40,088 nucleotides of DNA. Origin: Pseudomonadales bacterium (GTDB lineage: Bacteria > Pseudomonadota > Gammaproteobacteria > Pseudomonadales > UBA7239). Location of the stretch: the NCBI GenBank assembly GCA_020443005.1, contig JAGRJA010000250.1, forward strand, positions 1-40,088, given 5' to 3'. The translations under genes were made by a program, and so were the position numbers. Positions 1,993-21,382 of this stretch are shown here, piece by piece. Each line of letters begins with the position of its first letter. Within the stretch, counting starts at the first letter, position 1. The notes below the pieces were generated by a model. The model saw only the letters and a program-made list of their open reading frames with translations. It was not told the DNA's origin and did not search any database.

Positions 1993-2006
1993 TTGATTAA
2001 AGTCAA
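1993..2006 (-). promoter_or_regulatory. FNR/CRP-family box TTGATTAAAGTCAA
   Basis: Matches TTGAT-N4-ATCAA at 9/10 positions. Centre is about 73 nt upstream of ATG 1926. A GATAAT -10-like hexamer (complement of 1967-1972) sits at class-II-like spacing. Confidence 0.55.
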
Positions 2007-2023
2007 AAAACTGTTTCACGAAA

Positions 2024-2056
2024 ACGAAAAGGCCGACAATGTTGCCGGCCTTTTCG
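2024..2056 (-). terminator. Intrinsic terminator downstream of P450 gene
   Basis: AAAAGGCCG...CGGCCTTTT stem (2027-2054), followed on the minus strand by a T-rich tract. Begins 20 nt after the P450 stop. Confidence 0.65.
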
Positions 2057-2075
2057 CGTTATCAAGATTAACACC

Positions 2076-3452
2076 CTATTGGATTTTTTCGAGTACCAAT
2101 GGCAAGTCATCAGCCGGTTTTGGCATGGGTACATGTTGTAATTTCGGATAATAATTATCGGGCGCCCTGAATCGGTATTTTTGTACAAACTGGAACATAA
2201 ACAGTTTCGCCTGCATGGCGGCGAAATGCATACCGATACATTTGTGCGGCCCCCCACCAAACGGCACATAAAGGAAAGGATGACCTTTTTGCTCTGATCG
2301 CTCTGGTGAAAAACGATCCGGGTCAAATTTTTCCGGGTCTTTCCAGTATTTATCCATTTTGTGGTTATAACAGGGAGGAATAAAGATCATCGTGTTAGCA
2401 GGTACACGATGCCCACCAATTTCACATTCGCGAACCGTTCTGCGCGTCATCAACTCCACGGAAGGGTGTAAACGCAATGTCTCATGGAAAATATCATCCA
2501 GAATCTGCATATTGTTGATATCGTCATAGTCCATGAATTCCTTACCCATCGACACACAGGCATCACGCAGTTTTTCTTGCCAATCCTGATGCACAGCGAG
2601 ACGATAAACCATATGGGTCAATGCACTTGTGGTTGTATCATGAGCACCAAAAAGCAGGAATGACACATGCTGAACAATATCATCATAGGAAAACAGATCG
2701 CCCTCTTCCGTTTTCTCATGACACATGAATGACAGAATGTCGCTACCCGGCTCCTTACGCTTCATCTCGATCAGACTTTTCACATAATCATGAATAAAGC
2801 GTTTACCCTGTTGCCCCTTGTGATACTTCAACCAGGGCAAAGGAATATCCTTACGAACAATTGCAGTCAAACCATCTGTTGTTGCGATAAAAGCATCATT
2901 AAGCTTTTCAGCCTCGGGACCGATGTCATCAAGATCAATAAATACCTTCGCCACTGAGCGCAACAATGATTTTTTTATGTGCGGAAAGAAAGTAAATTCG
3001 TAAGGACTCCACTCCGCAATATACTTTTTGAAAAGCGGATTGATAACATCGACATAACCTTTCATGGCATTATTTTTGAAAGCCGACTGAAAAATCCTGC
3101 GCTGCATACGGTGCTCATCAAAATCCCTGAGTAATAAACCACCTTTATAAAAACGACCCAGACGCTCTGCGTAACCCATTTCTGTAGAGAAGTTCCTTTC
3201 CGGATCAAGGTAAATCTGCTTCAGGTTTTCGGGCCCCATCACCAATAAACCTCTTTGACCACCCAGATTGACACGGGAAACCTCGCCAAAACGCACATAA
3301 TGCTCATGCACAAGTGCATGTAAATCAGTCAGGATTTCATAGGTTTTACCGAGAACCGGCATACCATATTCGCCGGGAATATGATCCAGATTTTGTGCGT
3401 CAGGTTGATCTTTATAGGATAGGTCGAATGTAGCTTTTACAGCCTGCGCCAT
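2076..3452 (-). CDS. Cytochrome P450 (458 aa, soluble)
   Basis: I-helix GAHDTTT, ExxR (ETLR) and heme-thiolate loop FGGGPHKCIG. N-terminal IPGEYGMPVLGKT motif. GAGGAG SD before ATG 3452. Confidence 0.9.
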   Translation of the reverse strand: MAQAVKATFDLSYKDQPDAQNLDHIPGEYGMPVLGKTYEILTDLHALVHEHYVRFGEVSRVNLGGQRGLLVMGPENLKQIYLDPERNFSTEMGYAERLGRFYKGGLLLRDFDEHRMQRRIFQSAFKNNAMKGYVDVINPLFKKYIAEWSPYEFTFFPHIKKSLLRSVAKVFIDLDDIGPEAEKLNDAFIATTDGLTAIVRKDIPLPWLKYHKGQQGKRFIHDYVKSLIEMKRKEPGSDILSFMCHEKTEEGDLFSYDDIVQHVSFLLFGAHDTTTSALTHMVYRLAVHQDWQEKLRDACVSMGKEFMDYDDINNMQILDDIFHETLRLHPSVELMTRRTVRECEIGGHRVPANTMIFIPPCYNHKMDKYWKDPEKFDPDRFSPERSEQKGHPFLYVPFGGGPHKCIGMHFAAMQAKLFMFQFVQKYRFRAPDNYYPKLQHVPMPKPADDLPLVLEKIQ

Positions 3453-3534
3453 AACTTACTCCTCAAGCAATGACAGAATTGTCTGATGTATCGATATTGA
3501 AGGGGTATAGTTACGGATTAACGGTTTGCAAACA

Positions 3535-3548
3535 TTGATTCGCGTCAA
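3535..3548 (-). promoter_or_regulatory. FNR/CRP-family box TTGATTCGCGTCAA
   Basis: 9/10 match to TTGAT-N4-ATCAA. Centre is about 90 nt upstream of the P450 ATG (3452), in the fnr-P450 intergenic region. Confidence 0.55.
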
Positions 3549-3644
3549 CGAAGCGATAATGTCGACAGTGTCTACGACATTTTACTGAAGGCAAACAGAG
3601 GGGGGTTAACAATTTATACTCTTTGTAAAACCAGGCCCGGATAA

Positions 3645-4415
3645 TTACTTGTCCTGATTCACATTGGCCGCCTTTTTCAGTGCATCCATATCAAGAATCT
3701 CGATTTCCTTATTGGTCACCTTGAGCACATTATTCTTTTGCAGACGACCAAATGAACGGCTGACAGTTTCTACCGTGATACCCAGATAATTTCCGATATC
3801 GGAACGGGTCATGGCCAGGCGAAACTTCGTTGCCGATAGGTGACGACTGCTGTTTCTTGCAGAAATACTCAACAGGAGTGACGACAACCTCTCGTCAGCC
3901 GAATTGCACCCCAACAGCGTCAGCATTTGTTGGTCTTTTATGATTTCCTTGCCCATGATACGAAAAAAGTGGTGCTGCAGGGATGGCAATTTGGTTGCCA
4001 AACCTTCAAGTCTTTCAAAGGGTATTTCACAAACGCTGGATACTTCTAGAGCGACTGCTGACGCACAATGGTGTCGGCTACTGATACCGTCCATACCCAG
4101 AATTTCCCCGGGCAAGTAAAAACCCGTTACCTGAACCTCGCCACTGTCGGTAATGGAATAGGCCTTGAAGCTGCCAGAACGCACAGCGTAGACAGAATGG
4201 AATTCGTCACTTTCACGAAAAAGATGATCTCCTTTCTGTAAAGGGCGACCCCTCTTTACGATCTCATCCAGTTGATCAACCTCTTCGGTACTGAGTGCAA
4301 TCGGCAAACAAAGGGCTCCAAGCCGACAATCCGAACAACTGACATTCGGGTTTGTGTGACATCTTGCGCGAGCAACTTTGGGTTCTTCGCTAATCTTCAT
4401 GCTATTGCCTGGCAT
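3645..4415 (-). CDS. fnr: FNR/ANR-type oxygen-sensing Crp/Fnr family transcriptional regulator
   Basis: N-terminal Cys cluster C-x2-C-x5-C (SCSDCRLGALC) plus the VCEIPF cysteine gives the FNR [4Fe-4S] ligand pattern. C-terminal HTH carries the ETVSR recognition motif. Start set at ATG 4415 (AGGAAA SD); the ORF stays open to 4451. Confidence 0.9.
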   Translation of the reverse strand: MPGNSMKISEEPKVARARCHTNPNVSCSDCRLGALCLPIALSTEEVDQLDEIVKRGRPLQKGDHLFRESDEFHSVYAVRSGSFKAYSITDSGEVQVTGFYLPGEILGMDGISSRHHCASAVALEVSSVCEIPFERLEGLATKLPSLQHHFFRIMGKEIIKDQQMLTLLGCNSADERLSSLLLSISARNSSRHLSATKFRLAMTRSDIGNYLGITVETVSRSFGRLQKNNVLKVTNKEIEILDMDALKKAANVNQDK

Positions 4416-4424
4416 GTTTGTTTC

Positions 4425-4438
4425 CTGACCTGAATCAA
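4425..4438 (-). promoter_or_regulatory. Possible FNR box CTGACCTGAATCAA overlapping the fnr translation-initiation region
   Basis: 8/10 to the TTGAT-N4-ATCAA consensus (9/10 if C is allowed at position 5, as in the other boxes here). Lies 10-23 nt upstream of ATG 4415 and overlaps the SD. It would be inside the CDS if the 4451 start is real. Confidence 0.3.
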
Positions 4439-4606: not shown

Positions 4607-6010
4607 TCACAAGGTTTTGGAGTATGTGTAACCTTTTTGTCTGGATTCTTCGAGATACTGATCGAATGCCATACAAATATTGCGAAGAAATGGAAAACCC
4701 TTGTCAGTAACGGCAAGTGAATTTTGGGAAAGCTCAATAATGTCGTCTTCAATCAGGGGCTCTAGCTGAGAAATTGCTTTGGAAAAATGCAACTTGAAAT
4801 CAATTGAGAAAGCGCCCTCAAGCTCAGGTATATTCAATTCGCGGTAACAACTCAGTCGCTGGATGACCGTTCTTCTCAGCACATCCTCATCTGTCAACAT
4901 CAAACCATGGGCAACAGGTAACTGGCTGGCATCCAGCGCCTGATAATAGTGCTCAAGTGTCCGATGGTTTTGTGCATACACCCTGTCAAAACTGCTGATC
5001 GATGAAACCCCCATGCCGACCAAATCCGTGGCTTTTGCAATCGAATACCCCTGAAAGTTTCTGCACAAGGTGCCGTCCTGCCGGGCAATCGCCAAAGAAT
5101 CGTCCGGTTTCACAAAATGATCCATGCCAATGTACACATAACCCGCTTCAGTGAAGCGCCGGATGATCAATGCAAGCATACCCACTTTCTGGTCGGCATT
5201 AGGCAGCGTATGCCGGTCGATCGCACGCTGTGAAGTAAATCGTTCTGGCAAATGCGCGTAGTTGTAACAGCTGATACGATCGGGTGAAAGTTCAATCACT
5301 TTATCCAGTGTCTGGTTCATGGTGATTTCTGTTTGAAAAGGCAAGCCGTAAATCAGGTCAAAATTCAAAGAGCGAAAAGACCGTGTTCTGATATAGGCGA
5401 CCAGATCGGTCAGCTCATCAATATCCTGAACGCGATTGATGGCTTTTTGAACCGTTTTATTGACATCCTGAACACCCAGACTGACGCGGTTAAAGCCAAG
5501 ACCTCTCAACAAATCAATGGTCTGATGATTAACTGTTCGAGGATCAATTTCAATAGAGTAGTCACGACCCTGCTGCGTCTCCAGCGTAAAATAGCTGGCT
5601 GTATGATGCATCAACTCGGTCATCTCGGCTTCATCGAGAAATGTCGGCGTACCGCCTCCCCAGTGCAATTGGGTTACCGGGCGTTGGTAGACATCAAGCT
5701 GCAAGCGAATCAGTGCCATCTCCTTGCGCAGGTAGTCCAGATAATGACGAACAACCGTTTTGTCTTTTGTTACGATTTTATTACAGGCACAGTAGTAACA
5801 AATGGATCGGCAAAATGGCAGGTGGATGTACAATGACAAGGGGGCTTTCGAACTGACATCATTATTCAATGCCTGCAGATAATCCTGCTCATTGAAAGTA
5901 TCGGTAAATTGTGCAGCAGTCGGATAAGAGGTATAACGCGGACCACTGACATCATACTTCTTCAGCAATACAGGGTCGCTTTTGAATGTTTTTGTGACCA
6001 GCATATCCAT
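4607..6010 (-). CDS. hemN: Oxygen-independent coproporphyrinogen III oxidase (radical SAM)
   Basis: CRSICYYC radical-SAM cluster motif and YDVSGPRYTSYPT N-terminal signature, about 465 aa. The ORF-track start 6022 is TTG; the first ATGs are at 6010 and 6004. Confidence 0.92.
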   Translation of the reverse strand: MDMLVTKTFKSDPVLLKKYDVSGPRYTSYPTAAQFTDTFNEQDYLQALNNDVSSKAPLSLYIHLPFCRSICYYCACNKIVTKDKTVVRHYLDYLRKEMALIRLQLDVYQRPVTQLHWGGGTPTFLDEAEMTELMHHTASYFTLETQQGRDYSIEIDPRTVNHQTIDLLRGLGFNRVSLGVQDVNKTVQKAINRVQDIDELTDLVAYIRTRSFRSLNFDLIYGLPFQTEITMNQTLDKVIELSPDRISCYNYAHLPERFTSQRAIDRHTLPNADQKVGMLALIIRRFTEAGYVYIGMDHFVKPDDSLAIARQDGTLCRNFQGYSIAKATDLVGMGVSSISSFDRVYAQNHRTLEHYYQALDASQLPVAHGLMLTDEDVLRRTVIQRLSCYRELNIPELEGAFSIDFKLHFSKAISQLEPLIEDDIIELSQNSLAVTDKGFPFLRNICMAFDQYLEESRQKGYTYSKTL

Positions 6011-6078
6011 GCTTCTCGGCAATTTCTCATCTGAGGCTTCGTGAAGTTGCTAGAGTAATGCCTCGGGGGAAATTCTTG

Positions 6079-6092
6079 TTGACTTACATCAA
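6079..6092 (-). promoter_or_regulatory. FNR box TTGACTTACATCAA upstream of hemN
   Basis: 9/10 match to TTGAT-N4-ATCAA. Centre is about 75 nt upstream of ATG 6010. hemN is a classical FNR/ANR target. Confidence 0.7.
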
Positions 6093-6224: not shown

Positions 6225-7817
6225 CTAACGCTGAATTTGCCAATCTGTACCACTGTACAGACTCACAGCAGCGTTTCCTGTCACATTGGCTGCATCAATG
6301 GTAAAGATCTGCCAGTTTCCACTCGTATGTCTTAACAAAAGATCAGCATCTCCATCACCATCAAAATCACCTTCTGTTTCAAAAGACCACGCGATACTTG
6401 AAAACAGATCGAGCACATGACTACCGACCACTGTGGCTGACTGAACATCAAAAATTCGCCATGTACCAAGAAGCGTATTTCTGATCAAAATATCATCATC
6501 GCCATCGCCATCAAAATCACTGGCCACCTGAAACTGGTAATCAGAAGAAGCAAATAGTTGAGGCAGCCCGTAACTTGAAACCACAGCACCGGCTTCCACA
6601 ACAAACAAACGATATTTGCCGTCTGCACCTCTCAAGAGAATATCGTCATCAATATCCCCATCAAAATCACCCATACCTGCAAACGAATAGCTTGTACTTG
6701 ACCACAAATTGAATGCAGAATTTGCAACAACAGCCCCCGATTGAATCGTGAACAAACGCCATATACCCGTTATATTATTGCGCATAAGCACATCATCGTC
6801 CGAATCAGCATCAGCATCAAATGCAGCCACGAAATCCCAGTCTGAACCGGTATAAAGATTGATAAATACTGCTGGTGGCGGTGTCGCTTCACCCGCTTCG
6901 ACAATAATCAACTTCCACTGCCCGTCAGTGCTGCGACGGGTAATCACATCCTTATCGCCATCACCATCCACATCGAGGTTTGCTTGATGAATGCGCTGGC
7001 CATCATTGGTTGCGGCAAAGATGGTATTACTGTCTACAGCACCTGACTGAAAGGAAAACAATCGCCATACATTGGAATTAACATTGCGAACCAATATGTC
7101 ATCATCAAAGTCAGCATCAAAATCACTTTCTCCCGCAGAGGCAATCAGACAAATTGAAGCCGGATCAAGCGGGTCAGAACCACAGGCAATTTCATCAAGA
7201 TCACTAATGCCATCGTTGTCATCATTCAGATCTGCATTGTTTCCGATACCATCATTATCAGTATCCACAGACTCGGTAGCATCAAACGGAAAATCATCGC
7301 TTGAATCGGGAACACCATCATTATCATCATCCAGATCGCAGGCATCTCCTTCAGCATCACCGTCGTTATTTTCCTGTCCACTGTTCGCAATTTCAGGACA
7401 GTTATCCAGATGGTTTTTGACACCGTCGGCATCGGCATCTTCAGTAAAGCCCCAGTTAGCGCAATCGACAATGTTGTACCAGGTGTTCAGTGTTGTACCA
7501 CCGACCTGATAGCATTTGTTGCCATCGAGCGTACCGTAGCTGAAATCAAAAATCGTTTCTCCCGCAACAGCCCAGGCCTTCAAGCCCACATTAGTCGAAT
7601 TAACGGGGATAGATTCGTAATGCAGATTATTCTGGCAACCCCAGGCGCTCCAGGAAACAGTGCCCCCATTTGCTCGATGCTCGGCATCAACAACATAACC
7701 GGTCTGACCACAAGGCATATAGATGCCGAGAATATAATAGGTTTGTGCGTTAGCGGGATTGGATAAAAGAAGGGGTAAAAATGACAAACAGAATACAGCA
7801 AACAATTTTTTCATCAT
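6225..7817 (-). CDS. Secreted thrombospondin type-3 repeat / FG-GAP (beta-propeller) repeat protein
   Basis: Signal peptide MMKKLFAVFCLSFLPLLLSNPANA-Q. Ca-binding TSP3-like motifs DADADGVKNHLDNCP...NDGDAEGDACDLDDDNDGVPD (nt 7167-7442). Six repeats of about 50 aa of the DFDGDGDDDILIRN..G.WRIF type. AAGGAA SD. Confidence 0.8.
   Translation of the reverse strand: MMKKLFAVFCLSFLPLLLSNPANAQTYYILGIYMPCGQTGYVVDAEHRANGGTVSWSAWGCQNNLHYESIPVNSTNVGLKAWAVAGETIFDFSYGTLDGNKCYQVGGTTLNTWYNIVDCANWGFTEDADADGVKNHLDNCPEIANSGQENNDGDAEGDACDLDDDNDGVPDSSDDFPFDATESVDTDNDGIGNNADLNDDNDGISDLDEIACGSDPLDPASICLIASAGESDFDADFDDDILVRNVNSNVWRLFSFQSGAVDSNTIFAATNDGQRIHQANLDVDGDGDKDVITRRSTDGQWKLIIVEAGEATPPPAVFINLYTGSDWDFVAAFDADADSDDDVLMRNNITGIWRLFTIQSGAVVANSAFNLWSSTSYSFAGMGDFDGDIDDDILLRGADGKYRLFVVEAGAVVSSYGLPQLFASSDYQFQVASDFDGDGDDDILIRNTLLGTWRIFDVQSATVVGSHVLDLFSSIAWSFETEGDFDGDGDADLLLRHTSGNWQIFTIDAANVTGNAAVSLYSGTDWQIQR
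6228..7127 (-). repeat. Six tandem ~150-nt coding repeats (FG-GAP-like blades)
   Basis: D-x-D-x-D-x-D-D-[IV]-L motifs start at aa 232, 281, 333, 384, 434 and 484. A recurring nucleotide motif ccatcaaaatcac is seen at about 6358, 6498 and 6658. Confidence 0.75.
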
Positions 7818-8022: not shown

Positions 8023-8994
8023 TCAGTCTTTTTGTTTGATCTGCTGAGCCGACTCGGTAATGGTCTCCGGGTCAAGGCCTTTATGACCCCACACATCACC
8101 TTCGCAGAATTCACTCGGCAACCAGCTTTCGTCTACCAACAAACCTTCACAACCAATTTCAACCTCAAAACCAAAAGGGCTGCTCATGTAGAAAGACAGC
8201 ATGTTGTCGTTGGTATGACGACCAAGTGTTGATGTTACTTTGATACCAGCAGCTTCGACACGCTCCAGACATTGAGCCACCTGATCAATATTCTTCATTT
8301 CAAGCATCATGTGATGGATGCCGTTAACGGGGCCTACATGCGTCAAACCCAATGTATGGTGACGCGGGTTGCAATGATAGAAATTCGCCGATAAATCCGG
8401 CCCAAACTTGATGTAATCACTCAGCTTGAAACCCAGAACCCAAGTATAAAAGTCTTCGCACGCCTTCAGATCCTTGACGAAAAGATTGACATGCCCCAAA
8501 CCCAGTGAACCCGTCTGGAACTCCACATTGTAAGGCGATACAAACTTGTAGTCCTTGGTGGGTCCGTAGAAAAATTCGAGTGGATTTCCTGCCGGGTCTT
8601 CCGAAATGGCGATACCGGTCACAGACCTGTTCCGGGCTTCTTCGGCCGTTCCCATTCTTGCAGGAACGCCACCCTCTTTCAGCTCTTTAACAGCTTCTTC
8701 AAGATCCTGATAGCAAGCCATTTCAAAACCCATGTACATGATTCCGGCATTATCCTCACTGGGATGAATGCCTATCCGCCACTGGCGCTCATCCAGCTTC
8801 AGATATACCGAGCCATCCGGTGCCACTCCGGAACCAGCACTGGCAGGGCCAGAGGTCGGGTCCATGGGCATACCCCAATCTTCACCGGGATAAGCGCGTG
8901 CCGGCATGGCGCCGATGATATTGACACCATAATCCAGCCATTGTTTAGGGTCTGGCGCACCAAACCCGATGTAACCGAGAGATCTTACTTTCAT
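8023..8994 (-). CDS. Type I extradiol (meta-cleavage) ring-cleavage dioxygenase, BphC/HsaC-like
   Basis: Two-domain VOC pattern: MKVRSLGYIGF start, GLGHVNLF, CNPRHHTL, HHMMLE and LGRHTNDNMLSFY. Start set at ATG 8994 with GAAGGAAG SD, 22 nt after the P450 stop. The ORF track extends to 9042. Confidence 0.85.
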   Translation of the reverse strand: MKVRSLGYIGFGAPDPKQWLDYGVNIIGAMPARAYPGEDWGMPMDPTSGPASAGSGVAPDGSVYLKLDERQWRIGIHPSEDNAGIMYMGFEMACYQDLEEAVKELKEGGVPARMGTAEEARNRSVTGIAISEDPAGNPLEFFYGPTKDYKFVSPYNVEFQTGSLGLGHVNLFVKDLKACEDFYTWVLGFKLSDYIKFGPDLSANFYHCNPRHHTLGLTHVGPVNGIHHMMLEMKNIDQVAQCLERVEAAGIKVTSTLGRHTNDNMLSFYMSSPFGFEVEIGCEGLLVDESWLPSEFCEGDVWGHKGLDPETITESAQQIKQKD

Positions 8995-9016
8995 AACACG
9001 CTTCCTTCTGTTCTGC

Positions 9017-10222
9017 TTAGTCTTTGAGGCTTGTTGGCGCAAAGGTAATGGTTACCTTCCCCCAACCGGACAAATGTTCACCGTAAAGCGGCTCACACTC
9101 CTCCTCTACCAGCTCATAATCACCGATGGCCTTGAGCAATTCTTCAAGAATAATGACACCCATCATCACGCCCACATGCATACCCAGGCACTTGTGACCA
9201 CCGTGACCAAACATCAAGGTGCGCTTTGTGGGCTGGCGATACATATCAAACTTGTCGGCATTCTCGTATTCGTTTTCATCGCGTTCAGCCGATGCATAAA
9301 TATAAAGCAGTGGTTGCCCAGCCTTGATTTGCGCGCCGTTCACTTCAAAGTCAGCAATGGCTTTCCGGCATAACATATTGGTGGGCTGGTTATAGCGGGC
9401 TGTTTCCAGAAAGGCTTTTTTGACAAGAGACAGATCTTTTAGCACTGCCGCCTTCTGCTCAGGATTTTTTGCAAGGTTATAAAGTGTTCCCCCGACAGTA
9501 ATTGGCGTGGTTTCCGAACCAACAACCAACAGTGAGAAGAGGTAGAAAACGAGTTCTTCATCATCCAGTTTCTTGCCATCAATTTCAGCGTGCAAATAAG
9601 CGGCAGCATGACGAACCGCTTCTTCAGGGTGTGCACGCAATTCGGCAACCTTTGCACCGAGATAGCCAAACAGTTCACCTGCCGCTTTCTGGTTTCGCTC
9701 GGAACCGCCACCAACCTGGCCTTCATCACGCCATAACATATCGTCGATCAGTGCTCGCCATTTTTCTGCGTCTTCCTGTGGTAAACCCAGGTTATAACCA
9801 CCGTTGATGGTTGTGACACGGTTAGCCAATTCAGAGTAAACATCCATCTTGCCTTTGGCGAGCAAGGGTTTCAGAAATTCCCTGACCAGCGCACGAATGC
9901 GTGGCGCCTCTTTCGCTGCACCGTCAGGCGTATAGGCCTCGCGAATCAGACCCCGCCACTTACGATGTTCAGGTGCATCCATGGTCATAAATGTTTTCGG
10001 AATCAGTTCACCCAAAATAACCTGACCCGGTGTCTGGCCGGCAGTGAAAGTGATATTCCCCTCCTGCTTGAGACTGGCAGCCCACACATCCTCGAAACGA
10101 CAAAACGCCCAGGCATTGTATTTCTCGATAAAATGGGGTTTTCCTTCTGCACGCATAGCCTTGTACAGTGGATAAGGGTCTTTCATTGCCTCATGGGAAA
10201 AAGGATCGTAATCAACAGTCAT
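9017..10222 (-). CDS. Cytochrome P450 (401 aa, bacterial class I type)
   Basis: I-helix GSETT, ExxR (ETAR) and heme loop FGHGGHKCLG. AGGAGA SD before ATG 10222. Confidence 0.9.
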   Translation of the reverse strand: MTVDYDPFSHEAMKDPYPLYKAMRAEGKPHFIEKYNAWAFCRFEDVWAASLKQEGNITFTAGQTPGQVILGELIPKTFMTMDAPEHRKWRGLIREAYTPDGAAKEAPRIRALVREFLKPLLAKGKMDVYSELANRVTTINGGYNLGLPQEDAEKWRALIDDMLWRDEGQVGGGSERNQKAAGELFGYLGAKVAELRAHPEEAVRHAAAYLHAEIDGKKLDDEELVFYLFSLLVVGSETTPITVGGTLYNLAKNPEQKAAVLKDLSLVKKAFLETARYNQPTNMLCRKAIADFEVNGAQIKAGQPLLYIYASAERDENEYENADKFDMYRQPTKRTLMFGHGGHKCLGMHVGVMMGVIILEELLKAIGDYELVEEECEPLYGEHLSGWGKVTITFAPTSLKD

Positions 10223-10341: not shown

Positions 10342-10355
10342 TTGACATTAGTCAA
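10342..10355 (-). promoter_or_regulatory. FNR/CRP-family box TTGACATTAGTCAA
   Basis: Perfectly symmetric half-sites TTGAC/GTCAA with a 4-nt spacer. Centre is about 126 nt upstream of the P450 ATG 10222. Confidence 0.5.
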
Positions 10356-13033: not shown

Positions 13034-13047
13034 GCGGGGAATCTGAC

Positions 13048-13656
13048 ATGAAGCATGAAGTCATTGAAAAGAATATCGGACTGATGATCATCCTCATCGT
13101 GGTAGCTATCAGCTTTGGAGGGCTTGTCGAAATCACACCTCTGTTTTTCAGCAAGCAGACAACAGAACCGGTCGCCGGCTTGACACCTTTGAAAGCACTT
13201 GAGCTTGAAGGACGCGACATTTATATCCGCGAAGGTTGCAATGTGTGCCATTCCCAAATGATTCGCCCGTTTCGCTCTGAAACCGAGCGTTATGGTCACT
13301 ACTCAGTGGCAGGAGAGTTTGTCTACGATCACCCTTTCCTTTGGGGTTCCAAGCGTACAGGCCCGGATCTGGCTCGGGTAGGCAAACGCTACAGTGATGA
13401 GTGGCATCGAGTTCATCTCAATAACCCGAGAGATGTAGTACCTGAATCGAATATGCCCGCTTTCCCCTGGTTAAACAAAAACATGATCGATGGCACCCTT
13501 ACCGGCAAGAAAATGGAAGCTCTGCGTATGGTTGGTGTCCCTTATACCGATAATGATATTGCCGGCGCAGAAGCCGCTGTCAAGGATCATACCGAAATGG
13601 ATGCTGTTGTTGCCTATCTGCAACAGCTTGGCATTCTTATTCAGTACAAGCGGTAA
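13048..13656 (+). CDS. ccoO: cbb3-type cytochrome c oxidase subunit II (monoheme)
   Basis: N-terminal TM helix and CNVCHS heme-c site. 202 aa, immediately after ccoN. Confidence 0.95.
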
Positions 13657-13662
13657 ATCATT

Positions 13663-13869
13663 ATGGAATTCGATATCAACACGCTACGCGGCTTGAGCAC
13701 ACTCTTTACCATGATTGCCTTTCTTGGTGTCTGCGTATGGGCTTATAGCAGAGAAAAACAACAGGATTTCCAGGAAGCCGCAAATCTGCCTTTTGCCGAT
13801 GACCCCGGCTCGCTGGATAAGCATTTAAACAGTTCCCTCAAACCCAAAGTGGAGGATGACCATGAGTAG
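13663..13869 (+). CDS. ccoQ: cbb3-type cytochrome c oxidase subunit IV
   Basis: 68 aa with a single TM helix (LSTLFTMIAFLGVCVWAY), positioned between ccoO and ccoP. Confidence 0.85.
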   Translation: MEFDINTLRGLSTLFTMIAFLGVCVWAYSREKQQDFQEAANLPFADDPGSLDKHLNSSLKPKVEDDHE

Positions 13870-14740
13870 TTTCTGGAGTGGGTGGATCATTCTGCTAACC
13901 ACAATCACCTTTATCGGTGTAACGCTGCTTTTATTTGGCAACCGCAAGATTGATGCCGGCAAGGGGCCTGAAGCCAAGACAGGTCATGTTTACGATGGTA
14001 TTGAGGAATACGACAACCCTCTGCCCGCCTGGTGGATGAATCTTTTTGCTCTCTCTATCGTGTTCGGGGTCGGCTATCTGATCGCCTATCCTGGCATGGG
14101 TAACTTCAAGGGGGTGTTGAACTGGACACAGGTTGCCGAATATGAAAATGCCAAACAGGTTGCTGAAGAACAATACGGTGCTGTATTTGCAAAATATGCC
14201 GCCATGCCGGTTGAAGAAGTTGCCAAAGATAGTCAGGCACTGAAAATGGGGCAACGACTTTTTTCTACAAACTGCTCAACCTGTCACGGTGCCGATGCGG
14301 GAGGCAATCTGGGGTATCCGAATCTTCGTGATAACGACTGGCTCTATGGCGGTTCTGGTGATCAGATCAAGGCTTCCATCACTAACGGACGACAAGGTGC
14401 GATGCCTGCCTGGGGAACAATGGGCGAAGAGAAGATAAAGCAACTCACCAGTTATGTCATGAGCCTTTCCAACCCTTCTTCGGCACTTTCCGGAGAAGCG
14501 CAACAAGGCAAAGCGGCTTTTGCCATGTGCATGGGCTGCCACGGTATGGATGGCAAAGGCAATACTGCACTGGGTGCGCCTGATTTGACAGATAACATCT
14601 GGCTTTATGGCGGCTCAAAAGAAGCTATTTCTGAGTCCATAGCGAATGGGCGTAAAGGACAGATGCCAGCGCATGCCGAATTGCTTGGCGAAGAAAAAAT
14701 ACACTTGTTGGCCGCCTATGTTTTCAGTTTGTCTAACTAA
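13856..14740 (+). CDS. ccoP: cbb3-type cytochrome c oxidase subunit III (diheme)
   Basis: Two CxxCH sites (CSTCHG, CMGCHG) and an N-terminal TM helix. Overlaps the ccoQ end. The second ATG at 13862 is better spaced from the GGAGGA SD. Confidence 0.93.
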   Translation: MTMSSFWSGWIILLTTITFIGVTLLLFGNRKIDAGKGPEAKTGHVYDGIEEYDNPLPAWWMNLFALSIVFGVGYLIAYPGMGNFKGVLNWTQVAEYENAKQVAEEQYGAVFAKYAAMPVEEVAKDSQALKMGQRLFSTNCSTCHGADAGGNLGYPNLRDNDWLYGGSGDQIKASITNGRQGAMPAWGTMGEEKIKQLTSYVMSLSNPSSALSGEAQQGKAAFAMCMGCHGMDGKGNTALGAPDLTDNIWLYGGSKEAISESIANGRKGQMPAHAELLGEEKIHLLAAYVFSLSN

Positions 14741-14820
14741 AGCGGTATTCTTTTTACAAGTGTCTGGATAAACCAGCCTTTCACCAGGGAAGCCCCTCTA
14801 ACGGCAGGGTCGTTTGTTGT

Positions 14821-14866
14821 CCAATATGCCGACAGGCATATTGGACTGTGTTCTTTTCATTTTTTG
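14821..14866 (+). terminator. Perfect 10-bp-stem hairpin plus T-rich tail between ccoP and ccoG
   Basis: CCAATATGCC-gaca-GGCATATTGG (14821-14844) followed by ttcttttcatttttt. Lies 80 nt after the ccoP stop and 45 nt before the ccoG ATG. Confidence 0.6.
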
Positions 14867-14888
14867 CATTGTTTTAGCGTGGTTGCAA

Positions 14889-16310
14889 ATGGAAGAAAAA
14901 ATTCCCGTTCATGAAATTGAGGATCTTGCGCCCAGCGAAGTATCCGAGCTCGATCTTTACCAGAAGCGCGAGAAGATTTATACCAGAAAAATTGAGGGCA
15001 CCTTCCAGAAACTGCGTTTATTTACAGGGTGGCCCCTGCTCTGCGGATATTTCTTCATGCCCTGGGTCCAATGGAATGGAAGACAGGCCGTATTGTTTGA
15101 TCTTCCAGCCAGAAAATTTCATGTTTTTTCCATCACCTTTTGGCCCCAGGATTTCTCCATGCTCGCGTGGGTTCTGGCCATTGCGGCTTTTGCACTGTTT
15201 CTTTTCACAACCCTGTTCGGGCGGGTCTGGTGTGGCTACAGTTGCCCGCAAACCGTCTGGACAAGCATTTTTATGTGGATCGAACAAAAAACGGAAGGTA
15301 GCCGCAACCAGCGCATAAAGCTTGACCAGTCTCCATGGCGCTTACAAAAATTTGTCAAAAAGTTAATGAAACATGGCCTCTGGATGGGCTTCGCCCTTTT
15401 CACCGGGTTCACCTTCGTTGGCTATTTTTCACCCGTCAACGACCTTATCTACGATCTGGCAACATTTTCTGCCCCGCTAGCGGCCGTCAGCTGGGTTATT
15501 TTCTTCACACTTGCAACCTATATCAATGCCGGCTGGATGCGCGAACAGGTATGTATGTACATGTGTCCCTATGCCCGTTTCCAGTCAGCCATGTTTGACT
15601 CCAACACACTCATTGTCTCCTATGATGCAAAACGGGGAGAACAAAGGGGTTCCCGCAAACGCGGTGAAATTGACAGGAGTGATCACCTGGGCGATTGCAT
15701 TGACTGCGAACTTTGCAAGCAGGTTTGCCCCACCGGAATCGATATCAGGGACGGCCTGCAGTACCAGTGCATCGGTTGTGCACTTTGTGTCGATGCATGT
15801 AACTCTGTTATGGAGAAAATGGGTTATGCAAAGAACCTGATCAGCTATACGACTGAAAACAAACTGGCGGGAAAGCCCGGCAAAATCCTCCGCTTCAAGG
15901 TCGTCGGTTACACAATCGCCTTGATCGTGATGTGCAGCCTTCTCGGCTTTCGTTTCTTTACCCGAACCCCTCTGCAAATCGACATTATCAGGGACAGGGG
16001 ACAACTCTATTTCCAGACCAGTGACGGGCGTATTGAAAACAGCTACACACTAAAAATCATCAATATGGACCAACAGAAGCATGATTACACGCTGTCAGCC
16101 TCCGGCTTGGAAGGCCTGGAAATCCGCGGCAAAACCAGCATTTCCGTCAATTCCGGTGAAGTGCTGGTTGTTCCGGTGCGACTCAGTGTAAAAACCACAA
16201 GTCTGGGCAGCGCCAACAGTGACATCATCATTACCGTTCAGGGTGAAAACAGCGACAAACTGAAAACCTCGCATACAACACGCTTTCTTGGGCCAGCTCC
16301 ATCCCTTTAG
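14889..16310 (+). CDS. ccoG: cbb3 oxidase assembly ferredoxin-like membrane protein
   Basis: LYQKREKIYTRKIEGTFQKLR N-terminus, CGYSCPQ, and two 4Fe-4S motifs (CIDCELCKQVCP, CIGCALCVDAC). Start moved to ATG 14889 because the ORF-track extension covers the terminator hairpin. Confidence 0.9.
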   Translation: MEEKIPVHEIEDLAPSEVSELDLYQKREKIYTRKIEGTFQKLRLFTGWPLLCGYFFMPWVQWNGRQAVLFDLPARKFHVFSITFWPQDFSMLAWVLAIAAFALFLFTTLFGRVWCGYSCPQTVWTSIFMWIEQKTEGSRNQRIKLDQSPWRLQKFVKKLMKHGLWMGFALFTGFTFVGYFSPVNDLIYDLATFSAPLAAVSWVIFFTLATYINAGWMREQVCMYMCPYARFQSAMFDSNTLIVSYDAKRGEQRGSRKRGEIDRSDHLGDCIDCELCKQVCPTGIDIRDGLQYQCIGCALCVDACNSVMEKMGYAKNLISYTTENKLAGKPGKILRFKVVGYTIALIVMCSLLGFRFFTRTPLQIDIIRDRGQLYFQTSDGRIENSYTLKIINMDQQKHDYTLSASGLEGLEIRGKTSISVNSGEVLVVPVRLSVKTTSLGSANSDIIITVQGENSDKLKTSHTTRFLGPAPSL

Positions 16311-16413
16311 TATCAGCACCTGGAGCTAGCATCACCTGCTGGAGCGGGAGTCAGGCTATCTCCGCCCCGCGTTGCCAAATTTGTTAGACTACGCCAACTA
16401 AAGGGAGCTACCC

Positions 16414-16983
16414 ATGTCGCTATCGTCTCTTCATGAAAAAAACGAGCCAGAACCCTGGTACAAGCAGTTTTGGCCCTGGTTCCTGATTGCTCTGCCCGGC
16501 TCTGTGGTCATTGCCGCTATTGCCACCTTGTACATCGCAATACAAAACCCCCAGCCACTTGTGAAAGAAGAGTATTACAAGGATGGTCTGGCGATTAACC
16601 GGGATATGGAAAAAGAACTGGCCGCCGCCCGGGCGGGTTTGCAGGCACACCTCAGTTTCAGCGAGGACAAAAGAATCATCAACATTGCTCTCAGCCGATT
16701 GAAGGAAAACATGCCATTGCCCGAACAAATCTATCTGGCATTCATTCATCCCGCCGATGACACACTCGACATCAACCTGCTACTCAATCTCGATCAAGAC
16801 AGCTTGAACCGAGGAACCCTATACAGTGGAATAATCGATAATGGTATTGCCACTCAAATCGGCGCCCAGCGCTGGTATATACAAATTGAACCTTCTACAA
16901 ATGACAAAAACGGTTTATGGCTCCTGAAAGGAGAAATTCCATCAGGCACCACATCTGCTGTGATTGGCGAAACACTTGAGTAA
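16414..16983 (+). CDS. ccoH: FixH/CcoH cbb3 oxidase assembly protein
   Basis: 189 aa with N-terminal TM helix (WFLIALPGSVVIAAIATLYIAI). Position between ccoG and ccoI. AAGGGAG SD. Confidence 0.85.
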   Translation: MSLSSLHEKNEPEPWYKQFWPWFLIALPGSVVIAAIATLYIAIQNPQPLVKEEYYKDGLAINRDMEKELAAARAGLQAHLSFSEDKRIINIALSRLKENMPLPEQIYLAFIHPADDTLDINLLLNLDQDSLNRGTLYSGIIDNGIATQIGAQRWYIQIEPSTNDKNGLWLLKGEIPSGTTSAVIGETLE

Positions 16984-16987
16984 AGTC

Positions 16988-19429
16988 ATGTCTCAGTGTT
17001 ATCACTGTGGTCTGGATACCACATCGAATACACCCTACCATCATGAAATAGATGGGTCTGAAAGAATCTTCTGTTGTCCCGGCTGTCAGGCGGTAGCCCT
17101 TACCATCCATGAAAATGGCTTGCAGGACTATTACAAACTGCGAAGCGCAAATGCCTCACCCTTGCTCAAACGACAACCAGCGGATTACGAACTCTATAAT
17201 GAACCCTTGCTTCAGGCAGAGTTTATAAAGAAAAACACCGCATCCAACTGGGAAGCCGAAATATTTATCGAAGATCTGCATTGCGCAGCCTGTTGCTGGC
17301 TAATTGAAAAAGCCGTTACCCGACAAAAAGGAATTGAAGACATCCAGGTCAATCTTTCAACGCACAAAGCGCTGGTGAAATTTGACCCCGAGCATTGCAA
17401 AGCGGCTGACATTTTTTCTGCAATTTCCAAACTGGGTTATCAGGCTGTTCCTGCTTCCGGTAACACCCCCCAAAAACACTTGCAACATCAACGCAAGGAA
17501 GACCTGAAGCGCCTGGGACTGGCGGGTCTGATCATGATGCAGACAGGAATGTTTTCCATTGCACTTTATGCGGGCGAATTTCAGGGAATCGCATACAGCC
17601 ATCAGACCCTGATTCGCGTTTTCAGCCTGATACTATCGACCATCATGCTCGCCTATTGCGCCAAACCCTTTTTTCAGGGCGCCCTGAGAAACCTCAAAAA
17701 CAAGGCACTTGGCATGGATACACCTATCAGCATAGCCTTGTCAGGCGCATGGGTTTCCAGCGCCTACGCCACAATGAGCGGAAACGGCCATGTCTATTTT
17801 GATTCAATTGCGATGTTCACCTTTCTTTTGCTGTTAGCACGGTATATCGAGTCCGGTTCACGCAACCACCCTTCATACTGGCATTTCCGGCCGGACATCC
17901 CTGCCAACTGCAAGCATCTGGATCAACAGGGGAAAATCATGATTGTGCCAGTTGCCAGCCTGAAAGCAGGCCAAATTATCCTTATCAACCCAGGGGAAAC
18001 CATAGTCGCAGATGGAGAAATCATCGAAGGTTGTTCAAGTGTCGATGATTCATCAATCAGCGGAGAGTTTTTACCAAAAAGAAAATCTGCAAACGATCCG
18101 GTTTATGCCGGTAGCATCAATCACGATGGCACCCTGAAAGTCCGAGTAAGCAGAGCTTCCGGCGACAGCAGTCTCTCCGTGATCAACAGGCTCACTGAGA
18201 GAGCGATGCTGGAAAAACCTGAAATAGCCGGTTTTGCCGAAACAGTAGCCTCCCTGTTCACGCTGATTGTATTGTCTTCCACGGGTTTGTGCGGCTTTCT
18301 CTGGTGGTACTTTAACCCTGAAAAACCGGCTCAGGAAATCTTTGAAATCTGTTTTTCGATGTTGATTGCAAGCTGCCCATGCGCATTGTCTCTGGCAACA
18401 CCGGCTGCACTCGCTTTTACCCATAACAGTTTTCGGGCAAAAGGTGTCTTTATCGTCACGAACAATGTGATTGAAAAACTGGTCACCATCAGTCGCGCCA
18501 TGTTTGATAAAACCGGCACACTGACAGAAGGTAGCTTCCGTATCGCAGAAATACAAACTTTGGGTTCACGCAACAAAAATCAATGTATCGCAATCGCCAC
18601 AACCATTGAATCTGTTTCCGATCATCCTGTTTCAGGTGCTTTCAGGCAAGCGCAAGCTTCCGGCCGAAAGGTTAACCATGCCCCTGATTCTTTCTGCCTT
18701 TTTTCAGGGGAAGGTATCGAGGCCGAGATCAAAGATACTGCCTACAGAATGGGGTCACTGCCATTTTGTCAGGAATGGCAACCCGACCTTGGTATGAAAG
18801 TGATGACCGGCGCCGCTCACTATCAAAGAATATGGCTGGTTTCAAAAGAAGAATGTCTTGCCTGCTTCTGCCTTGAAGACAGCATTCGTTCTGATGCAGC
18901 TGATCTGGTCAGCTACTTTTCCAGACAAAAACTTACAACCGAAATAATGAGTGGTGATAGCTCCAGTCATGTCGAATTTGTTGCCGGAAAACTCCATATT
19001 GACAACTTTCATACAGGAATGACAGCCAGCCAAAAACTGAAGATGATAAAAGACAGGCAAAAGAAAGGTGAAAGTGTACTGATGATAGGCGATGGCATAA
19101 ATGACGCGCCCGTTCTGGCTGCTGCCAATGTTTCAATTGCCATGGGTAACGCCAGTGATATCAGTAAAAACAGTGCCGACATACTATTATGTTCAAATCG
19201 GCTTTCCGATATCAAAACACTTTTAATTCAATCAAGAAAAACACTTCGCATTATCAAACAGAATATCGGCTGGGCCCTGTTTTACAACTGTTCCATTCTG
19301 CCGATGGCGGGTTTGGGGCTTGTCCCGCCCTGGTTGGCGGCAATCGGCATGTCATTAAGCTCTCTCGGCGTTATAATCAATGCACGAAGACTAAAACTGC
19401 CTCTGGAGTTATCAACAGTTCATGGATAG
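16988..19429 (+). CDS. ccoI: Copper-translocating P1B-type ATPase for cbb3 maturation
   Basis: N-terminal Cys-rich CYHCG...CCPGC, HMA-like CAACC, and the CPC, DKTGTLT and GDGINDAP motifs. ATG 16988. Confidence 0.93.
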   Translation: MSQCYHCGLDTTSNTPYHHEIDGSERIFCCPGCQAVALTIHENGLQDYYKLRSANASPLLKRQPADYELYNEPLLQAEFIKKNTASNWEAEIFIEDLHCAACCWLIEKAVTRQKGIEDIQVNLSTHKALVKFDPEHCKAADIFSAISKLGYQAVPASGNTPQKHLQHQRKEDLKRLGLAGLIMMQTGMFSIALYAGEFQGIAYSHQTLIRVFSLILSTIMLAYCAKPFFQGALRNLKNKALGMDTPISIALSGAWVSSAYATMSGNGHVYFDSIAMFTFLLLLARYIESGSRNHPSYWHFRPDIPANCKHLDQQGKIMIVPVASLKAGQIILINPGETIVADGEIIEGCSSVDDSSISGEFLPKRKSANDPVYAGSINHDGTLKVRVSRASGDSSLSVINRLTERAMLEKPEIAGFAETVASLFTLIVLSSTGLCGFLWWYFNPEKPAQEIFEICFSMLIASCPCALSLATPAALAFTHNSFRAKGVFIVTNNVIEKLVTISRAMFDKTGTLTEGSFRIAEIQTLGSRNKNQCIAIATTIESVSDHPVSGAFRQAQASGRKVNHAPDSFCLFSGEGIEAEIKDTAYRMGSLPFCQEWQPDLGMKVMTGAAHYQRIWLVSKEECLACFCLEDSIRSDAADLVSYFSRQKLTTEIMSGDSSSHVEFVAGKLHIDNFHTGMTASQKLKMIKDRQKKGESVLMIGDGINDAPVLAAANVSIAMGNASDISKNSADILLCSNRLSDIKTLLIQSRKTLRIIKQNIGWALFYNCSILPMAGLGLVPPWLAAIGMSLSSLGVIINARRLKLPLELSTVHG

Positions 19430-19652
19430 CCTCTATATTCTCATTCCTATCGCAATGGTTTTTTCAGCGCTTGCCATCGCCGCCTATTTATGGGCAGTAA
19501 ACAGTGGCCAGTATGATGACCTTGAAAAAGAAGCTAGCCAGATACTTTTTGATGATCCCTCAGTCTTTAACCTGCAAAATGAAAAAACAAATGAACAATC
19601 AGGCAACCCGCAAACCGGTTGCATCCCGACTGAACAAAAAAGTGTGCAATGA
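19422..19652 (+). CDS. ccoS: cbb3 oxidase maturation protein CcoS/FixS
   Basis: 76 aa. MDSLYILIPIAMVFSALAIAAYLWAVNSGQYDDLE matches the CcoS signature. Overlaps the ccoI stop. Confidence 0.9.
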   Translation: MDSLYILIPIAMVFSALAIAAYLWAVNSGQYDDLEKEASQILFDDPSVFNLQNEKTNEQSGNPQTGCIPTEQKSVQ

Positions 19653-20515
19653 CTGAATTGCAATCCCCTTATCTGATTGCTTTTTTTTTGGGCCTGATGG
19701 GCAGCACACACTGTATCGGCATGTGCGGAGGAATTTCCGGCAGTATCGGCCTGACGCTTGATGAAAGACCGCTCAAGACCTTGCTTTACACCACACTGTT
19801 CAATCTGGGCAGAATAAACAGTTATGTGTTTGCAGGCTTGTTAATCGGCACGCTAGGCACACTAGTCTCTTCCATTGCTCCTGCGCCTGCCACCCTGATC
19901 GCGGTCTCCAGAACGCTTTCGGGTATTTTGCTGGTTGTCATGGCGCTTTATATTGGGCAATGGTGGTCAGGGTTGGCAAAACTGGAACATCTTGTCGGGG
20001 GCTTGTGGCAACACATCCAGCCTCTCACACGCGCTTTATTACCGGTCAGGCAATGGCATCAGGCATTATTAGTCGGGTTTATCTGGGGCTGGATACCTTG
20101 TGGTCTTGTCTACAGCACACTGATATGGGCGTCCTTGACCACCCAAGGAATTGACATTGCCCTGCTGATGTTGTGTTTCGGCTTCGGTACTGCCCCCGCC
20201 ATGATAAGCACCCTTTTTTTTGCCAACAAACTGGCAAAAGTGCTTCAGCATAAATTTACCCGTAGCACCCTTGCAGGGGCACTGATCGTGTTTGGCCTCT
20301 GGACGATTATTGGCGGGAATATGCATTATTTTCATACTGGCTCATCACACACACACACCGAAAGCTCAGTAAAAATTGAAACCGACAAAACCAAAAGCCA
20401 CGCGCCTGATGCGGCTTCCACAAACTCCGATGCTCCTCCCACAACTGATCAGCCTGCACAGCAGGACAAAAATGAACCCCTTGAACAACATGACAGGCAT
20501 CATCAACATCATTAA
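19649..20515 (+). CDS. TauE/SafE- or DsbD_2-like polytopic membrane protein with His-rich C-terminal tail
   Basis: HCIGMCGG motif in the first TM helix. ATGA overlap with the ccoS stop. Tail is HTGSSHTHTE...HDRHHQHH. Confidence 0.7.
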   Translation: MTELQSPYLIAFFLGLMGSTHCIGMCGGISGSIGLTLDERPLKTLLYTTLFNLGRINSYVFAGLLIGTLGTLVSSIAPAPATLIAVSRTLSGILLVVMALYIGQWWSGLAKLEHLVGGLWQHIQPLTRALLPVRQWHQALLVGFIWGWIPCGLVYSTLIWASLTTQGIDIALLMLCFGFGTAPAMISTLFFANKLAKVLQHKFTRSTLAGALIVFGLWTIIGGNMHYFHTGSSHTHTESSVKIETDKTKSHAPDAASTNSDAPPTTDQPAQQDKNEPLEQHDRHHQHH

Positions 20516-20541
20516 CAAAAAACTCACACCCATGTCCCAAT

Positions 20542-20574
20542 AAAAAAAAAGGAGCATAAAAATGCTCCTTTTTT
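20542..20574. terminator. Bidirectional intrinsic terminator
   Basis: GGAGCAT-aaaa-ATGCTCC (20551-20568) flanked by A9 and T6. Lies between convergent genes. A second small hairpin TTCGCC-gaa-GGCGAA follows. Confidence 0.8.
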
Positions 20575-20608
20575 CACTTCGCCGAAGGCGAAAATCAGGG
20601 TCGGTCGG

Positions 20609-21304
20609 TTAGAACTTGTAGCCAACACCTACCATGTAAACCCAAGGGTCAATGTCGACATCTGCTGTCACCTTCCCGGCAGGACTTTTTATAGTTGCTT
20701 CTGTGTCAATATCAAGGTTCCACACAGACAGATTCACCAGCAAATTCTCACTGACGGTAATATCCACACCTGCTTCCAGTGCCAAGCCCCAGGAATCATC
20801 CAGCGACATTTTAGATTTCCCACCCAGTGCTGTTTCGAGCCCGCTGTGTACATCCTCGTCAAAGAACACGTTGTAATTCACACCTACGCCGACATAAGGC
20901 TGTACAGTCGCCTCCTTGTCATTAAAGAAATACTGTGCAGTTACAGTTGGGGGCAAATGTTTTGTGCTACCAATGTTTTTGGTGGCAAGCGCGCCCTGAA
21001 TCGTCGAATCACCCTTGATTTCATGATCAAAGGGGGTTGCGGCCAACACGCCCAGACCAATATGATCGGTGAACATATAGGTGCCGGTGATGCCCAACTG
21101 TGTATTATTGTCAACAGAAAGGTCTCCGCCAGCCGTTGCACCCAAAACAGCACCGTTCAATTTGAGATCGTTGTTACTTTCGTCGGGAGCCACAGTCGCT
21201 GCACCCAAACGCAAAATAAAATCCCCTGCCTCATGTGCCTGAACCGAACCGGCGGTCAAACCAAAACCGATCACAGCAGCTGTTGCCAAAATATTTTTTC
21301 TCAT
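20609..21304 (-). CDS. ompW: OmpW family outer membrane protein
   Basis: Signal peptide ending VQA-HE. HEAGDFILRLGAATVAPDE start and C-terminal ...VGVGYKF beta-barrel terminus. 231 aa. Confidence 0.9.
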   Translation of the reverse strand: MRKNILATAAVIGFGLTAGSVQAHEAGDFILRLGAATVAPDESNNDLKLNGAVLGATAGGDLSVDNNTQLGITGTYMFTDHIGLGVLAATPFDHEIKGDSTIQGALATKNIGSTKHLPPTVTAQYFFNDKEATVQPYVGVGVNYNVFFDEDVHSGLETALGGKSKMSLDDSWGLALEAGVDITVSENLLVNLSVWNLDIDTEATIKSPAGKVTADVDIDPWVYMVGVGYKF

Positions 21305-21368
21305 GTAATTGCTACACTTGATAACACCAAAAAGTGATGCAATTCTAATAAAGCCCTTTTTTTTATTA

Positions 21369-21382
21369 TTGACTTAAATCAG
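21369..21382 (-). promoter_or_regulatory. FNR box TTGACTTAAATCAG upstream of ompW
   Basis: 8/10 to the consensus. Centre is about 72 nt upstream of ATG 21304. ompW is FNR-regulated in enterobacteria. Confidence 0.5.

Follow-up and report, generated by a model that had tools for sequence, protein, structure and literature searches.

The window analysed here is a 40,088-nt stretch of DNA (contig JAGRJA010000250.1 of assembly GCA_020443005.1, contig C145 in our numbering) from an uncultured marine Pseudomonadales/Cellvibrionales bacterium, whose nearest records are metagenome-assembled genomes (MAGs) such as Cellvibrionales UBA2034. The source genome is itself a MAG of 2.64 Mb in 516 contigs and is 96.9% complete. 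Around its fnr gene the window holds a group of FNR-type boxes, and we consider it probable that the genome's single FNR activates the promoters clustered here. At its core, the island is an ordinary, well-known low-oxygen set, made up of hemN, fnr, the cbb3-type oxidase genes cco, and ompW. What is new is that predicted FNR boxes also stand before O2-consuming oxygenases, namely two cytochromes P450 (P450a and P450b) and an extradiol dioxygenase, and that two orphans, a 39-aa protein and a family of ~100 aa (112 aa in the window), become new predicted targets.

Exact matches to the pattern TTGAY-N4-RTCAA occur five times in the window, at 1993, 3535, 6079, 10342 and 10831, and all five are intergenic; 100 dinucleotide shuffles, by comparison, gave 0.27 matches on average and two at most. 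The whole genome has 20 exact boxes, five of which lie within an 8.9-kb part of the window, and the intergenic DNA between 1.7 and 11.6 kb (1.5 kb) contains five where about 0.01 would be expected. We then compared coding with intergenic DNA across the genome, using as coding mask a crude open reading frame (ORF) caller by which 90% of the genome is coding. The sequence-only reading made previously from this DNA had named an equal frequency of such sites inside genes as evidence against itself. For exact boxes the frequencies are unequal: 9 were fully intergenic compared to 1.9 expected under a first-order Markov model (P = 1.4e-4), whereas coding DNA held 10 compared to 18 expected. Over the 2.64 Mb, the enrichment of exact boxes in intergenic DNA is about 5-7-fold. 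In four relatives, 10-33 exact boxes were found, compared to 2-15 matches for a reversed control pattern. Degenerate sites showed no enrichment, either with one mismatch (240 per Mb intergenic versus 200 per Mb coding) or with two (1911 versus 1854 per Mb), and the 14 one-mismatch sites in the window are at chance frequency (8.2 +/- 2.9 expected). Hence, degenerate sites lack statistical support in their own right, and these tests do not back the one-mismatch sites as a class.

Eight FNR-type boxes had been listed in the sequence-only reading. Five of these are the exact matches, with that of the divergent pair beginning at 10831 instead of 10830, whereas the sites at 4425, 11563 and 21369 miss the pattern under which they had been listed. 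Six of the eight are credible and likely functional, namely the five exact boxes and the one-mismatch box before ompW (21369), and there is some support in relatives for all six; the sites at 4425 and 11563 are not among them. To examine the arrangement of the promoters, we looked for -10 hexamers that end 32.5-34.5 nt from the centre of the box, as would be expected if the box is at -41.5, and that match at least four of six positions, including A2 and T6. Such a hexamer is present in five of the seven promoters, compared to a background of 6.8% among 8,393 mock positions 5' of the genome's genes (P = 2.8e-5), which backs the class II (-41.5) architecture proposed earlier. The expectation that box centres lie mostly 60-90 nt from the start codon was also roughly borne out by the measured distances (Table 1). 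Since the box at 10831 is at the class II distance from a -10 hexamer on each strand, it would be able to serve both divergent promoters.

This geometry bears on the direction of regulation. FNR could bind the P450 and dioxygenase boxes as a repressor, shutting off enzymes that are useless without oxygen; it would be intuitively sensible to stop the synthesis of oxygenases once O2 is gone, and FNR/Anr do repress some promoters, such as cioA in Pseudomonas (PMC6588701). However, repressing sites normally overlap the -10 element or the transcription start, or come in tandem, whereas the oxygenase boxes are arranged like those of hemN, Yip1-cco and ompW: the centre is about 34 nt upstream of the end of the -10 element, there is no -35 element, and neither the -10 element nor the start is overlapped. 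As the oxygenase boxes have a class II layout, this argues for activation, and repression appears unlikely.

The regulator itself was identified from its sequence. The fnr product scores 291.3 bits on the NCBIfam model NF008365 (Fnr, cut-off 228), contains the cNMP_binding, HTH_Crp_2 and Crp domains, and matches the solved FNR of Aliivibrio fischeri (5cvr) with 235 bits. The [4Fe-4S] ligands, an N-terminal Cys-X2-Cys-X5-Cys and a central Cys, lie in VSCSDCRLGALCLP and SSVCEIPF, which align with IHCQDCSISQLCIP and SMVCEIPY of 5cvr. The E--SR recognition helix (ETVSR) pointed out in the sequence-only reading is indeed present together with this Cys cluster (GITVETVSRSFGRLQ, aligned to TVETISRLLGRFQ of 5cvr) and is of the type that reads TTGAT half-sites. 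In sequence, then, the regulator is a canonical [4Fe-4S]-type FNR, Anr-like and predicted to be O2-labile. Neither narG nor nirS (cd1 nitrite reductase domain) was found in the ~97%-complete genome, which suggests that this FNR is most likely a microaerobic regulator rather than one of anaerobic respiration. The window's host may in this be likened to P. putida, where Anr acts in a bacterium without anaerobic respiration.

The consensus TTGAT-N4-ATCAA is common to Dnr, FixK and Anr, and the boxes could therefore be read by another Crp/Fnr-type regulator (Dnr/NnrR/FixK-like) that responds to a non-O2 signal and whose gene lies in the unassembled 3%, given an assembly of 516 contigs and 96.9% completeness. 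We regard this as quite improbable: a tblastn search of the whole assembly with FNR found no second Crp/Fnr-family gene at E<=1e-3, only that of the window, there is no narG or nirS that would call for a Dnr type, and fnr lies inside the cluster both here and in relatives.

We next looked at how far the core targets are conserved, using 80 loci collected around relatives of fnr. The prevailing arrangement there is box-hemN-fnr-box-Yip1-ccoNOQP-ccoGHIS, which occurs in Halieaceae, Spongiibacteraceae and allied MAGs. An exact box lies within 300 nt upstream of hemN in 59 of 66 related loci, and one precedes the gene for the Yip1-domain membrane protein in 36 of ~52 loci, mostly 76-79 nt from its start, while the Yip1-ccoN spacer (30-210 nt) is practically free of anything resembling a box. 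Among 12 genomes of the window's own family, 10 have an exact box before Yip1-ccoN, and box 10831 is kept in G001, a relative from a different genus. Yip1 is always directly upstream of ccoN in the relatives (the window's family, Halieaceae, Spongiibacteraceae and allied MAGs), and a terminator scan found no terminator between Yip1 and ccoN or between hemN and fnr. With boxes before Yip1 and none in the spacers, ccoN is most likely transcribed from box 10831. Yip1, which had been put forward as an unexpected target, thus heads, as a conserved first gene, an FNR-boxed cco operon in many Cellvibrionales-type genomes and is no surprise. We found no paper on Yip1 together with ccoN or cbb3 oxidase, although the coverage of the literature was incomplete and this is an absence of evidence only. 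For ompW, 9 of 13 family orthologues have, at the same place, a site that deviates at no more than one position (TTAAYTTAAGTCAA and variants), with no difference from the window in the promoter-proximal half-site or the spacer. In summary, hemN, cco and ompW all hold up as the expected targets they had been taken for, except for the box of ccoN's own, and the core of the island (hemN-fnr by cco, with ompW) is a conserved layout and no peculiarity of this genome.

Two candidate sites were rejected. Autoregulation of fnr through the site at 4425, which had been read as fnr's own box, rests on a sequence that has one mismatch, overlaps the ribosome-binding site at a distance of 13.5 nt from the likely ATG of fnr, and is matched by no site in G004, G005, G011 or G001; this degenerate, unconserved site is probably due to chance. 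The site at 11563, assigned earlier to ccoN, has two mismatches and no candidate -10 hexamer at class II spacing, and nothing similar was found in the Yip1-ccoN spacers of 11 relatives.

Another reading, by which the boxes are palindromes that arose by chance, or copies of a short repeat, and regulate nothing, is hardly credible. It is true that the information content of a 14-mer is low, that roughly half of the genome's exact copies fall within genes, at the rate expected by chance, and that copies with one mismatch show no enrichment. However, chance would give about 0.01 rather than five boxes in the 1.5 kb of intergenic DNA, the boxes are kept at orthologous promoters while their intergenic surroundings have diverged, and the repeat-element idea was rejected because the flanks have no similarity beyond the box.

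We then examined the oxygenases that lie behind the boxes. P450a has CYP120A1 (2ve3) as its best PDB match, and all three genomes with hemN-fnr-P450a synteny (G004, G005 and G011) have the exact box TTGACCAGAATCAA before it; an ACTAT -10-like element is also kept in these orthologous promoters, where the spacer has otherwise diverged. An exact box lies about 119 nt 5' of another CYP120-like P450, a paralogue, in G002 and G009. The closest relatives of P450b are class I bacterial P450s, among them CYP125, CYP130 and CYP142, and the dioxygenase encoded behind it is closest to BphC and M. tuberculosis HsaC. A homologue of the extradiol dioxygenase, 37-42% identical to that of the window, is encoded divergently from hemN in 12 Halieaceae loci, with a box common to both; in this subgroup of Halieaceae (L076, L079, L082, L083, L089, L095, L097, L101, L113, L119, L121), no exact box stands before Yip1. 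In G001, seven exact FNR boxes lie on one P450-rich contig (G001:C22; L166, L167), and some of them stand before the genes for a flavin-containing monooxygenase (FMO/BVMO-type), a 2-oxoglutarate (2OG)-Fe(II) oxygenase, which has two boxes, and a universal stress protein.

The density of P450s is unusually high in these bacteria, with ~16 P450-like hits in the 2.6-Mb genome and 2-23 in the 1.3-4 Mb genomes of family f1, and from the P450 counts we estimate that ~0.08 cases of two P450s among about a dozen box-adjacent genes would be expected by chance, which makes a mere coincidence unlikely even at this density. No literature linking FNR/Anr to P450s or extradiol dioxygenases was found, with incomplete coverage, so that this is absence of evidence only. 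Activation of O2-requiring enzymes by FNR is physiologically plausible rather than established. The P450s, the dioxygenase and the 39-aa and 112-aa proteins had been singled out as targets that would not be expected; a box is kept in relatives for P450a and the two small proteins, but only a half-site for P450b.

Several points weigh against a cluster of FNR-activated promoters. Roughly ten exact boxes sit in coding DNA at about chance frequency, so that an exact match alone is no proof of function. The -10 candidates of P450a and hemN match only three of six positions. As the genome is in 516 contigs, a second Crp/Fnr regulator or further targets may be missed, and no experimental case of FNR activating O2-requiring enzymes was found in the literature searched. 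The P450b box is exact only in this genome. P450b orthologues of genus g3, which are without the dioxygenase, have only TTGAT-N4-(AACAA, GACAA or CGCAA) about 92 nt from the start, with one good half-site, and this half-degenerate site is nearer to a class I (-61.5) position, with a conserved CACAAT downstream at a spacing compatible with -61.5. P450b-dioxygenase is thus the weakest case for conservation among the six promoters. The sequence upstream of the g3 P450b genes (L026-L038) reads TTTGATTTAC..., followed ~47 nt on by GGCACAATGC, and this suggests a class I-like site (-61.5), or the site of a different regulator, in place of the window's class II box.

The two small proteins were searched for relatives and for known folds. 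The 39-aa protein has no Pfam match and no PDB sequence match, and hence no sequence link to known small oxidase subunits; tblastn found no paralogue in the genome or in the fetched loci. One homologue was found, in G001, just downstream of the P450b-dioxygenase genes (G001:C8, L164 17923-18130), where the gene has an exact box at a distance of 75.5 nt from its ATG, with TATAAT behind the box at class II spacing. The peptide may be functionally tied to the P450b-dioxygenase operon or to the oxidase. The 112-aa protein, by comparison, has 275 homologues and belongs to a family of ~100 aa that is widespread in Cellvibrionales, with the signature motifs YKKMAGTSAVF, ASPVERDG and LALEGLEDYDPP (proteins P0002-P0121). 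It has no Pfam, NCBIfam or PDB sequence match, and its AlphaFold2 (AF2) model, of moderate confidence (pLDDT 79), has no significant fold match in the PDB (best Foldseek E-value 0.03, TM 0.37). In 9 of 15 order-wide loci, the family gene is preceded at a short distance by a box with no more than one mismatch, and a box also stands before it in G001; in one of the nine loci the gene is divergent from ccoN, with a box common to both. The family gene sometimes adjoins ccoN or ompW.

G001 carries the whole expanded island. It has box-hemN-fnr and, further on, ompW, with DsbD_2-ccoSIHG-ccoPQON-Yip1 on the opposite strand. A box is followed by the 112-aa gene, P450b and the dioxygenase gene, so that P450b lies downstream of the boxed 112-aa gene, and another box is followed by the 39-aa gene.

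The island was then compared with known systems, among them the Anr regulon of Pseudomonas and its anr-hemN locus, near which cco also lies. In Pseudomonas, Anr is established or predicted to act on hemN, ccoN and oprG (OmpW family), and its gene adjoins hemN (PMC6588701). The window has the same type of regulator (four Cys ligands, E--SR helix), the TTGAT-N4-ATCAA box, the hemN/ccoN/oprG-ompW targets and the regulator by hemN; unlike the Pseudomonas locus, it has further boxes before the genes of two P450s and of an extradiol dioxygenase, before the Yip1 gene at the head of cco, and before those of two orphan small proteins, and P450s are not mentioned in the study of the Anr regulon (PMC6588701). 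The promoters resemble the class II promoters of E. coli FNR, with a palindromic box in place of the -35 element and a -10 element ending ~34 nt from the box centre, but the targets in the window are not genes of anaerobic respiration or fermentation, and one box, that at 10831, seems to act for two class II promoters that lie back to back. Compared to the Halieaceae/Spongiibacteraceae layout, which has the same genes with boxes before hemN and Yip1, the hemN-fnr block of the window is inverted relative to Yip1-cco and separated from it by the TSP3/FG-GAP gene, P450b-dioxygenase and the 112-aa gene, while P450a and the 39-aa gene follow fnr; the G001 island is similarly expanded. The rhizobial FixK2/FixLJ microoxic regulons (fixNOQP, hemN) agree with the window in their box consensus and in combining, at their core, a high-affinity oxidase with hemN. 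However, FixK2 has no Fe-S cluster and is under FixLJ control, whereas the protein of the window carries the FNR Cys cluster. In B. japonicum, a P450 locus is expressed anaerobically and symbiotically.

From the observed sites, their statistics, geometry and conservation, and the identity of the regulator, we infer binding, the direction of regulation, transcription starts and operon limits as follows. When oxygen falls, holo-FNR would dimerise and bind the TTGAY-N4-RTCAA boxes. The box centres are predicted to lie some 41.5 bp before the transcription starts, as in class II promoters, and from there FNR would recruit RNA polymerase to promoters that have a -10 hexamer and lack a -35 element. 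The units switched on would be hemN, possibly reading into fnr; Yip1-ccoNOQP, probably reading into ccoGHIS; the 112-aa gene; and ompW. The lineage-specific units would be P450b with the extradiol dioxygenase, the CYP120-like P450a, and the 39-aa membrane protein. Under scarce O2, FNR would thus raise the high-affinity oxidase, the O2-independent synthesis of heme, and a group of oxygenases that consume O2.

Tentatively, we extend this scheme to the P450-rich family as a whole, a reading that we hold to be a realistic possibility, short of likely. An O2-labile FNR would drive a 'hypoxic oxygenase' programme that includes CYP120-like and CYP125-like P450s and an HsaC/BphC-like dioxygenase, and in relatives also a flavin monooxygenase and a 2OG oxygenase, all of which would be co-induced with the cbb3 oxidase at limiting O2; Yip1, the ~100-aa family and the 39-aa peptide may be accessory factors of microaerobic respiration. 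FNR/Anr regulons are usually described as a switch to oxygen-independent metabolism, but here, in a bacterium in which neither narG nor nirS was found, the same switch appears to raise enzymes for which O2 is a substrate. If true, this would point to a way of keeping up the oxidation of terpenoid-, steroid- or aromatic-like substrates when O2 is very low, possibly on sinking particles or at the edges of oxygen-minimum zones, and the P450s and the dioxygenase would be candidates for a high O2 affinity. Likewise, the Yip1 protein, the ~100-aa orphan family and the 39-aa peptide are candidates for a role in cbb3 oxidase biogenesis or microaerobic physiology.

Table 1. Boxes, candidate -10 elements, genes and terminators of the island, in window coordinates
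Feature	Position	Strand	Sequence or support	Candidate -10, distance of its last base from box centre (nt)	Box centre to start codon (nt)
Exact box, promoter of 39-aa gene (minus strand)	1993-2006		TTGATTAAAGTCAA	GATAAT, 32.5	73.5
Exact box, promoter of P450a	3535-3548		TTGATTCGCGTCAA	AACTAT (weak), 34.5	89.5
Exact box, promoter of hemN	6079-6092		TTGACTTACATCAA	TACTCT (weak), 33.5	75.5
Exact box, promoter of P450b-dioxygenase	10342-10355		TTGACATTAGTCAA	TACTAT, 34.5	126.5
Exact box, divergent promoters: 112-aa gene leftwards, Yip1-ccoNOQP rightwards	10831-10844		TTGACACAAGTCAA	112-aa gene: TAGAGT (minus strand), 34.5; Yip1: TGaTAGAAT (plus strand), 34.5	112-aa gene 77.5; Yip1 85.5
One-mismatch box, promoter of ompW	21369-21382		TTGACTTAAATCAG, which is CTGATTTAAGTCAA on the gene strand	TAGAAT, 33.5	71.5
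One-mismatch site at fnr ribosome-binding site, probably chance	4425-4438		CTGACCTGAATCAA
Two-mismatch site 5' of ccoN, probably not functional	11563-11576		ATGATGGATGTCAT		60.5
Aldo-keto reductase	833-1720	+
39-aa single-pass membrane protein (sm39)	1807-1926	-	ORF and ribosome-binding site GGGGGAGAG
P450a, CYP120-like cytochrome P450	2076-3452	-	Pfam p450, 227 bits
fnr	3645-4418	-	NF008365; likely ATG 4418
hemN, oxygen-independent coproporphyrinogen III oxidase	4607-6022	-	TIGR00538, 560 bits; likely ATG 6010
Strong terminator 3' of TSP3 gene	6213-6188
Secreted TSP3/FG-GAP protein	6225-7817	-
Strong terminator 3' of dioxygenase gene	8006-7977
Extradiol (BphC/HsaC-like) dioxygenase, gene 2 of P450b operon	8023-9042	-
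P450b, class I bacterial cytochrome P450 (CYP125/130/142-like)	9017-10222	-
112-aa orphan	10422-10760	-
Yip1-domain membrane protein	10923-11525	+	Pfam Yip1, 107 bits
ccoN, ccoO, ccoQ (13663-13869), ccoP, cbb3-type oxidase	11630-14740	+
ccoG, ccoH, ccoI, ccoS (19422-19652), oxidase maturation	14814-19652	+
DsbD_2 membrane protein, grouped with the oxidase maturation genes	19649-20515	+
ompW-family porin	20609-21304	-	Pfam OmpW, 222 bits

Elsewhere in the genome, the other intergenic exact boxes adjoin PPK2 and rlmJ, rlpA, and a LuxR-type gene and a response regulator. One exact box, at contig C11:2705, lies ~70 nt before the signal-peptide start of a second, larger secreted TSP3/FG-GAP protein; the paralogue in the window is inside the island and has no box of its own. 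A further exact box, at contig C16:2109, lies between the gene of a MerR-family regulator with a SoxR-like CIGCGC motif and a gene for an RND efflux adaptor, and this box possibly links the FNR and redox-stress circuits.

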